This document shows, piece by piece, positions 6,232-8,551 of a stretch of 31,020 nucleotides of DNA. The translations under genes were made by a program, and so were the position numbers. The number at the start of each line of letters is the position of its first letter. Position 1 is the stretch's first letter. Under the pieces are notes generated by a model. The model was not told where the DNA came from. It saw nothing but the letters and a program-made list of their open reading frames with translations, and did no database searches. The stretch lies in assembly GCF_003334315.1 (NCBI RefSeq), contig NZ_QOWR01000054.1. One strand, given 5' to 3'. The DNA comes from Escherichia coli. Lineage in GTDB: Bacteria; Pseudomonadota; Gammaproteobacteria; Enterobacterales; Enterobacteriaceae.

Positions 6232-6277
6232 GAGTAAAAATGACTCGCTACCCGCAGCAGGCGAGTCATTTTTACTC
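6232..6277. promoter_or_regulatory. Perfect 17-bp inverted repeat (GAGTAAAAATGACTCGC-N12-GCGAGTCATTTTTACTC), candidate ZraR enhancer site
   Basis: Exact reverse-complement arms read directly from the sequence, centred about 70-90 bp upstream of both divergent sigma-54 promoters, the position expected for an enhancer-binding protein site. Confidence 0.65.
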
Positions 6278-6853: not shown

Positions 6854-7495
6854 TTGCGAACCTTCGGGCGCTTCCAGCCATGCCACGCTGACATCAACAG
6901 AAGAGCGGCTCTGGCGGCGCTCGATATGCGCTATCGCCTGCGAATCTAAATCAGGTTTAATGGTTTGCCCTTCGCAGGTGGTCACGGTCTGTTCCATCGC
7001 ATGCCAGCGCCCCTGGCGCAGCACGACTCTCCCCTGACGTAAGGCATCGCTAATCTGGCGGATCTGATCAGCACGATAACGGTATAAATCGATTTGGTCG
7101 TTAGAAAGCTGCTGCTTTTCCCCATCGGATTCACGTTGCATAAAGCTCAGATCACCGCGATCGTCAAAACGCGCGCGAATATTCACCGGCGGTTTGCTGT
7201 AAACATTGATATTGATGAGCGTGAGGTTATCGCCCTGCCAGCGATACTCTCGCGTCGTGGTATCGCCACTGCGCCACGGGCTAAACACGGCAAGCAGATG
7301 CACATTATCGCCGCTGTCTTTTCGCCAGATGCGTACCGCGCCCTGGTCTTCAGCAAATCCACTGGCGGTAAAGGGAGGAAGTGAAGAGTTGTGGCTACAG
7401 GCAGTGAGAAACAGCGCACCTGCCAGCATCAATGATCGACGCCAGAAAGACAAAAGGGGTGAAACCACCCCTTCGTTAAAACTGTTCACTGCCAC
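6794..7495 (-). CDS. yjaH: DUF1481-family putative lipoprotein
   Basis: 233-aa ORF with a lipobox-like LTAC motif near the N-terminus; sits immediately downstream of hupA as in E. coli. The exact start is uncertain (true start may be a few codons inside). Confidence 0.85.
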   Translation of the reverse strand: MAVNSFNEGVVSPLLSFWRRSLMLAGALFLTACSHNSSLPPFTASGFAEDQGAVRIWRKDSGDNVHLLAVFSPWRSGDTTTREYRWQGDNLTLININVYSKPPVNIRARFDDRGDLSFMQRESDGEKQQLSNDQIDLYRYRADQIRQISDALRQGRVVLRQGRWHAMEQTVTTCEGQTIKPDLDSQAIAHIERRQSRSSVDVSVAWLEAPEGSQLLLVANSDFCRWQPNEKTF

Positions 7496-7501
7496 GCAAT
7501 C

Positions 7502-7774
7502 TTACTTAACTGCGTCTTTCAGTGCCTTGCCAGAAACAAATGCCGGTACGTTAGCTGCGGCAATTTTGATTTCTTTACCGGTCTGCGGGTTGCGGCCAGT
7601 ACGCTCAGCGCGGTGGTTCACTTTGAAGGTACCGAAACCAACCAGTTGTACAGCATCGCCTTCTTTCAGAGACTCAGTAATTGCAGCCAGAGTGGACTCC
7701 AGAGCAGCTTTAGCCTGGGTTTTGGACAGTTCTGCTTTCTCTGCAATTACATCAATCAGTTGAGTCTTGTTCAT
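7502..7774 (-). CDS. hupA: DNA-binding protein HU-alpha
   Basis: 90-aa [93 protein letters not shown], recognised as HU-alpha. Confidence 0.97.
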
Positions 7775-7960
7775 AAGTTATCCTTACAATGTGTTTATCG
7801 CTTGCTAAGCATCGAGTGCGACGGAAATGCCAGAATAGCACTCTCCTGCATACACGCACCGATAGCCACTTTTTTTCGCCCCCCAAATGTAGACCAGACG
7901 GGGGGCGAAAGGGAAGACTCCAGGTACGACAAATCAGGCGTTAAATCACGTTTTCTGGTC

Positions 7961-8551
7961 TTATTGCTGAAAAATTATACCAATATTGCTCTCACCCGCC
8001 TCACGCAGGTCTGCCCTAAGGCCTTTTATCAGCTCGATATCGCGTTCTTCGCACTCAGCTAAAAGTCGGAATATTTCCCACTGAATGTCCCATTCTTGCT
8101 CTACAGCTGGGTTTTCTTTAAGCTCTTCATCGCTCATTTCGCGACCAGCCTGAGTCATTTCCAGCATCGCAACGGTCGTGATGGAGGTCTTACTCACTTC
8201 CACCGCGTGTTCGAGCGTTTCACCACTCAAACGCGAATGGACCAGTTCACTTAACGCCACGCATGCATCGATTGCCGGATAAACGCCGTACAGATCGAAA
8301 TCGTCGGCTGAAGGAATCGCTTCTTCAAATTTCTCCAGTTGGCTGTCGAAATTTACTTTTGCGTCTTTAACGGTCAGCGTTTCCCAGATGAGATCGAGAA
8401 TGCGACGGTAAATTTGCCCATCACCAAAACCGGTTTGCTGGCAGAACATGGCGTAATTGGGGTACATGCGTTCGCATAAGCAAGCCATGAAAGTGACATG
8501 CTGCCAGCTTTCCAGGCGCTCCAGACGCAGATGAATTGGGTTTTGTAACAT
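7961..8551 (-). CDS. yjaG: DUF416-family protein YjaG
   Basis: 196-aa ORF MLQNPIHLRLERLESWQHVTFMACLCERMYPNY..., recognised as YjaG; position between nfi and hupA matches the known order. Confidence 0.9.
   Translation of the reverse strand: MLQNPIHLRLERLESWQHVTFMACLCERMYPNYAMFCQQTGFGDGQIYRRILDLIWETLTVKDAKVNFDSQLEKFEEAIPSADDFDLYGVYPAIDACVALSELVHSRLSGETLEHAVEVSKTSITTVAMLEMTQAGREMSDEELKENPAVEQEWDIQWEIFRLLAECEERDIELIKGLRADLREAGESNIGIIFQQ

Follow-up and report, generated by a model that had tools for sequence, protein, structure and literature searches.

A perfect inverted repeat between yjaG and hupA of Escherichia coli coincides with the mapped hupA promoter

The hupA gene of Escherichia coli, which encodes HU-alpha, is reportedly transcribed from one growth-phase-regulated promoter, hupAp, according to the work of Kohno et al. 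from 1990 and of Claret and Rouviere-Yaniv from 1996, and the latter authors are also said to have found that CRP and Fis activate hupA. G+C-rich discriminators, as Travers reportedly set out in 1980, are found at stringent, supercoiling-sensitive promoters such as those of rrn, tRNA and fis. SMRT-Cappable-seq, a method that sequences full-length primary transcripts, has yielded a single hupA transcript on the forward strand at 4200175-4200605 that covers b4000 only, with 52 start-site reads for 4200175 in the M9 sheet and 45 in the second sheet (Yan et al. 2018, PMC6131387, Supplementary Data 1). The end of this transcript at 4200605 matches the hupA terminator. A 110-nt hupA-5' RNA has been reported as a ligand of ProQ (Stein et al. 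2020), a size that fits the 106-nt leader described below. The last ca. 30 nt of the leader are the RaiZ/ProQ target in Salmonella and represent the only part of the leader with a published role. In Salmonella, hupA mRNA is found almost exclusively in exponential phase.

The DNA analysed here, referred to as the window, is a 31,020-nucleotide stretch of an E. coli genome (contig NZ_QOWR01000054.1). The genes hemE, nfi, yjaG, hupA and yjaH follow one another on its minus strand, and 1.2 kb around the locus are 100% identical to many complete E. coli genomes. MG1655 positions were obtained as 4200281 + (7774 - window position); hupA occupies 4200281-4200553 in MG1655, and the MG1655 intergenic sequence is identical to that of the window. 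The features of the locus, in the direction of hupA transcription, are as follows.

7961-8551, minus strand: yjaG coding sequence (DUF416), stop codon 51 nt upstream of the repeat
7910-7915, minus strand: -35 hexamer TTCCCT, -35 to -30, 3/6 matches in E. coli, 18-bp spacer
7900-7910, minus strand: upstream arm TTTCGCCCCCC, -30 to -20, last base of the -35 hexamer and upstream part of the 18-bp spacer
7885-7899, minus strand: 15-nt "loop" GTCTGGTCTACATTT, -19 to -5, rest of the spacer and the -10 hexamer
7886-7891, minus strand: -10 hexamer TACATT, -11 to -6, 4/6 matches, with A at position 2 and T at position 6
7874-7884, minus strand: downstream arm GGGGGGCGAAA, -4 to +7, G-rich discriminator, start and first 7 nt of the mRNA
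7880, minus strand: hupA transcription start site (G), MG1655 NC_000913.3 4200175, fifth G of the G6 run
7870-7876, minus strand: A7 run (T7 on the plus strand), +5 to +11 of the hupA mRNA, initial transcribed sequence
7775-7880, minus strand: hupA 5' UTR, 106 nt
7502-7774, minus strand: hupA coding sequence (HU-alpha)
7453-7474, minus strand: intrinsic terminator of hupA, with a 9-bp stem, a 4-nt loop and a T-rich tail (terminator scan)

The terminator scan found no recognisable intrinsic terminator for yjaG. The hupA terminator is accompanied by a Term-seq 3' end at 4200605, corresponding to about window position 7450. The positions of this terminator (7453-7474) and of the yjaH ORF (7495-6794) are in conflict; either yjaH depends on read-through, or it has its own internal start, or its annotated start lies too far upstream.

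A perfect 11-bp inverted repeat occupies the yjaG-hupA intergenic region. The plus strand at 7870-7910 reads TTTTTTT CGCCCCCC AAATGTAGACCAGAC GGGGGGCG AAA, and the repeat finder identified the two arms TTTCGCCCCCC and GGGGGGCGAAA at 7900-7910 and 7874-7884, separated by a 15-nt spacer. The initial annotation had described a GC-rich 8-bp hairpin with T7 and A3 flanks at this site; that hairpin is present and extends to a perfect 11 bp by the addition of three T-A pairs to the 8-bp G/C stem. As RNA, the repeat is predicted to fold with -24.4 kcal/mol in a minus-strand transcript (z = -3.6) and with -25.6 kcal/mol in a plus-strand transcript (z = -4.0), and none of 200 shuffled sequences was as stable in either case. 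The corresponding values for single-stranded DNA are -14.0 and -13.3 kcal/mol. Perfect repeats of such size are rare by chance: the window contains 5 distinct ones with a stem of at least 11 bp and a loop of 3-20 nt, compared with a mean of 0.2 per dinucleotide shuffle. A 50-nt segment carrying the repeat is identical in 5358 of 5388 E. coli genomes and occupies a median of 1 place per genome. It is thus a single-copy sequence, and a REP-, BIME- or ERIC-like repeated element was rejected on this count.

The mapped start of hupA lies inside the repeat. Converted to window coordinates, the capped 5' end at 4200175 falls on position 7880 in the downstream arm, and the -10 hexamer TACATT falls in the loop. 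TACATT ends 5 nt before the capped 5' end, which is at the short end of the usual range and within the 5-9 nt used here for a sigma-70 promoter, while TTCCCT, weak at 3/6 matches, is placed by an 18-bp spacer within the 16-18 bp allowed for a -35 hexamer. The discriminator reads TGGGG and is followed by G at +1; the first 7 nt of the mRNA are GGCGAAA, which run into A7, and the hupA mRNA begins GGCGAAAAAAAGUGG. A lacZ fusion carrying window positions 7950-7777 shows promoter activity (PMC6047807), and no mutational dissection of the hexamers was found in the literature. The placement of the start at 7880 comes from a single published dataset; no second start-site record for hupA was found in the supplements of Ettwiller 2016, Kim 2012 and the 5'TNET-seq and nanopore papers. 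Our consensus promoter scan did not call the hupA promoter in the window itself because the E. coli -35 hexamer matches only 3/6 positions.

Two further promoter-like motifs were considered as the hupA promoter and rejected since both lie downstream of the mapped start. The extended -10 motif TGCTATTCT at 7841-7833 is located in the only variable patch of the leader, where TATTCT is replaced by TTTTCT, TTTTTT or TTTCAG in most genera. The second motif is GATAAA at about 7799-7794. Among the possibilities raised by the initial annotation was a structural element in the hupA leader or promoter. The promoter part of this proposal stands, with the start at 7880 in one arm and the -10 hexamer in the loop. 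The leader part was rejected: with its start in the downstream arm, the transcript made from the hupA promoter includes just 7 nt of the repeat, all from that arm, and therefore cannot form the hairpin.

To compare the repeat among relatives, we carried out a YjaG search with one genome per species, which gave 80 Enterobacteriaceae loci. Of these, 77 yielded the yjaG-hupA spacer, which is 186 nt long in 72. Column identities were calculated over 71 distinct loci and pairing was assessed over 26 distinct arm variants, with Dickeya and Erwinia in addition. The third codon positions of yjaG have a column identity of 0.71 and served as a near-neutral baseline. From about -26 to the hupA ATG, column identity is about 0.98-1.00, the whole loop included; two columns of the loop (7885-7899) are at 0.99 and all others at 1.00. 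A hairpin loop is not expected to be the best-conserved part of such a structure, and this loop is best conserved because it holds the -10 box. The arms behave differently on their two sides. The outer four bases of the upstream arm show identities of 0.56, 1.00, 0.73 and 0.49, near the neutral rate except for one invariant T, and their GAAA partners are invariant. Three Gs of the G-run are at 0.96, 0.61 and 0.92 with C partners at 0.96-1.00; at 7881-7883, G-to-A, G-to-T and similar changes are found in many genera and the C-run carries no matching change. The A7 run (7870-7876) has identities of 0.93-1.00.

The promoter elements are retained throughout this comparison. TACATT is invariant in all relatives compared, the TTC of the -35 hexamer is invariant in the 71 distinct loci, and hexamers and spacing are kept in all relatives. 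In Kluyvera, Pluralibacter, Dickeya and Erwinia the -35 hexamer is TTCACA (5/6), and a scan of the Kluyvera intergenic region returned TTCACA-18-TACATT, the ortholog of the E. coli elements, as its only promoter-like match. Dickeya and Erwinia keep TTCACA, TACATT and the G-rich discriminator and lose further pairs of the repeat.

Pairing is not retained in the same way. Across the 26 distinct arm variants, none of the 11 pairs is altered on both sides, so that compensatory substitutions of the kind expected for a conserved structured RNA are absent; six pairs depart by unpaired cells only, and 78.0% of cells pair compared with 78.3% when partners are shuffled. The stability of the orthologous RNAs falls from -24.4 kcal/mol in E. 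coli to -8 to -14 kcal/mol in Kluyvera, Klebsiella/Raoultella, Salmonella, Cedecea and others. In a scan against Rfam 15 with E-values up to 10, the only match overlapping the repeat was mir-4716, a chance match with 16 bits compared with a gathering score of 76. A conserved RNA or DNA helix was rejected on the pair counts in the 26 distinct orthologs together with the per-column conservation. Comparison with other enterobacteria had been proposed alongside the initial annotation as a check on the hairpin, with a structural element or protein-binding site among the options; the comparison, with its lack of covariation and the independent drift of the arms, does not support either of these. Retention of the promoter elements together with loss of pairing indicates that selection acts on the promoter DNA sequence and not on pairing.

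We conclude that the repeat is the hupA promoter, which was already known and mapped, and is neither a terminator nor a conserved RNA structure. Very probably, what reads as a palindrome is the core sigma-70 promoter of hupA, with the start in the downstream arm and the -10 hexamer in the loop. RNA polymerase would contact the -35 hexamer, the -10 hexamer and the arms as duplex DNA, with the holoenzyme using TTCCCT and TACATT at a spacing of 18 bp. The G-run may be conserved for polymerase contacts with the discriminator and start site and for open-complex kinetics, given the G+C-rich discriminator and the G at +2, and upstream activators could compensate for the weak -35 hexamer. A CRP-like half-site, CGTGA, is conserved at 7950-7946; no full CRP site was found upstream of hupA, where the 16-mer differs from the consensus at more than 3 positions. 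The complementarity between C-run and G-run is probably incidental. The full 11 bp are confined to Escherichia and a few lineages of Enterobacter, and 7-8 bp of C-run/G-run complementarity remain in most genera. The conserved GCCCCCC counts against the promoter interpretation, which offers no explanation for it, and this leaves a little room for some role of the complementarity.

A quite unlikely alternative is that the repeat acts as an RNA hairpin in transcripts reading through from yjaG. Such a hairpin could serve as a barrier to 3' exonucleases, form the processed end of Rho-terminated hemE-nfi-yjaG transcripts or otherwise shape the RNA that enters hupA. On the coding strand, the complete repeat follows the yjaG stop codon at a distance of 51 nt, its RNA stem is very stable (-24.4 kcal/mol, z = -3.6) and yjaG has no recognisable intrinsic terminator, all of which would suit this role. 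Published RNA 3' ends do not fit it. The Term-seq tables of Adams et al. (2021, PMC7815308), which cover three growth conditions, list no 42001xx 3' end on either strand and none between 4196790 and 4200251, leaving the stem and its surroundings without a mapped end. Nearby, 3' ends are listed only at 4200251/4200253 in the leader, at 4200389 inside hupA and at 4200605 at the hupA terminator. The absence of compensatory substitutions, a pairing frequency equal to the shuffled expectation and internal mismatches that weaken the stem in Klebsiella, Raoultella, Kluyvera, Salmonella and others speak against a read-through hairpin as well, and the loop as the best-conserved part points to promoter constraint at the DNA level.

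Comparably improbable is a DNA structure or palindromic operator that tunes hupA, either as a cruciform formed under negative supercoiling or through a dimeric regulator bound to both arms. The repeat lies exactly on the core promoter and is perfect over 11 bp with A/T-rich flanks, each DNA strand folding with -13 to -14 kcal/mol, and the C-run is conserved unusually well for a promoter spacer. Autogenous control of hupA, which would agree with such an element, was reportedly described by Kohno et al. in 1990. HU prefers cruciform and distorted DNA, from which structure-specific autoregulation could follow; structure-specific binding of cruciforms by HU is described in a preprint (bioRxiv 10.1101/2021.06.17.448862). 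Against a cruciform or operator, many genera carry C-A or other mid-stem mismatches and keep the promoter, and the outer half-sites drift on one side only. The 15-bp spacer also makes cruciform extrusion energetically costly. As a dimeric operator the repeat would be unusual, since arm centres 26 bp apart would put its half-sites on opposite sides of the helix. Less likely still is the specific case in which the complementarity is functional as a non-B structure, a cruciform or a displaced-strand hairpin, that forms under high negative supercoiling and is recognised by HU in its structure-specific binding mode. If true, the repeat would be an autoregulatory operator for HU-alpha that is defined by the shape of the DNA and not by its sequence, and its effect would be greatest in Escherichia with its perfect stem.

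The repeat is not an intrinsic terminator on either strand. Its stem is G/C-rich, its loop has 15 nt instead of about 3-8 nt, and no U-tract follows the stem, which is succeeded by AAAAAAAGUGG (AAAAAAA) in minus-strand RNA and by AAAGGGAAG (AAAGGG) in plus-strand RNA. The terminator scan did not call the repeat and found only the true hupA terminator at 7474-7453. The initial annotation had already noted that the T and A runs are on the wrong side and that the hairpin is not the yjaG terminator, and both statements hold: AAAAAAA follows the stem, a 3' U-tract is absent from both strands and Term-seq placed no 3' end there. It had also named a lack of transcript ends in 3'-end mapping as a refutation, and this is the outcome of the published Term-seq data, which have no ends at the hairpin in three conditions and so count against any terminator. 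A terminator for an unannotated antisense transcript, also suggested at that stage, has next to no probability in spite of a stable plus-strand stem (-25.6 kcal/mol), given a U-run that precedes the stem, the 15-nt loop, the negative scan, the lack of plus-strand Term-seq 3' ends in three conditions and SMRT-Cappable-seq data with no transcript ending here.

The 106-nt hupA leader is about 98-100% identical over the 71 distinct Enterobacteriaceae loci compared with 0.71 for yjaG third codon positions, with the clearest variable columns at 7833-7832 and 7824. Folding predictions for the 5' UTR gave nothing unusual (z = -1.3). A weak Term-seq 3' end on the hupA strand at window 7802-7804 (4200251/4200253), 28-30 nt upstream of the ATG, is recorded in two conditions; it lies in the leader and adjoins the region that pairs with RaiZ in Salmonella. 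This end could be a product of processing or attenuation. In Dickeya fangzhongdai (about 1917-2045 of the extracted locus, L083), the leader carries an insertion of ca. 125 nt at the variable patch and is otherwise conserved on both flanks. The insertion contains AGTAAGTGAATGGGGTGAGCG, which we take to resemble the ERIC2 primer sequence, so that the insertion presumably is an ERIC/IRU repeat.

Other sites in the window were recorded during the same analysis. A 15-bp perfect inverted repeat with a 12-nt spacer, GTAAAAATGACTCGC ... GCGAGTCATTTTTAC, is found at 6234-6275 in the divergent intergenic region between zraS and zraP; judged by its position, we assume that it is probably a binding site for the enhancer-binding protein ZraR. 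The purH leader contains a perfect inverted repeat with arms of at least 11 bp, GCGTTAGCTGA ... TCAGCTAACGC, at 475-518, some 30 nt before the start codon of purH. Its 16-nt centre is largely self-complementary, and the sequence is predicted to form a strong hairpin. The repeat is located just downstream of a PurR-box-like sequence, ACGCAAACGTTTTCGT, at about 426-441. Between purH and the rrnE operon, positions 188-203 match the CRP consensus perfectly (TGTGAAGTGATTCACA, 0 mismatches).

With the striking hairpin assigned to a mapped promoter, one candidate terminator or antisense element drops out; the biological weight of this is small. In practice, G/C-rich inverted repeats that precede a gene should be compared with start-site data before they are called RNA structures. 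What remains of some interest is that, across Enterobacteriaceae, both the spacer C-run and the full 106-nt leader of hupA are conserved almost completely.

Set against known systems, the repeat resembles cruciform-forming inverted repeats bound by HU in the perfect match of its two arms and in its location, the control region of a gene for an HU subunit. It differs from them in its long spacer of 15 bp and in a pairing that is not conserved in related genera. Like an intrinsic terminator, it has a perfect G/C-rich stem, lies downstream of a gene, yjaG, and is flanked by homopolymer runs; unlike one, it has no 3' U-run, a loop of 15 nt compared with 3-8 nt, no mapped 3' end and a structure that is not conserved. 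Closer similarity exists to promoters with G+C-rich discriminators: hupAp contains a G/C-only stretch between the -10 hexamer and +1, and hupA is expressed mainly in exponential phase. A literature search found no ppGpp/DksA or supercoiling control specific to hupAp. In contrast to rrn P1 discriminators, where the non-template strand typically carries C, that of hupAp carries G. By the sigma region 1.2 rule attributed to Haugen et al. (reportedly from 2006), a non-template G would favour stable and not short-lived open complexes. The match with hupAp of E. coli itself is complete, with the same start at 4200175, the same TACATT and TTCCCT hexamers, the 18-bp spacer, the 106-nt 5' UTR and a monocistronic transcript that ends at the hupA terminator. 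No difference from hupAp was observed, and the sole addition made here is that its spacer is complementary to the discriminator and start region.
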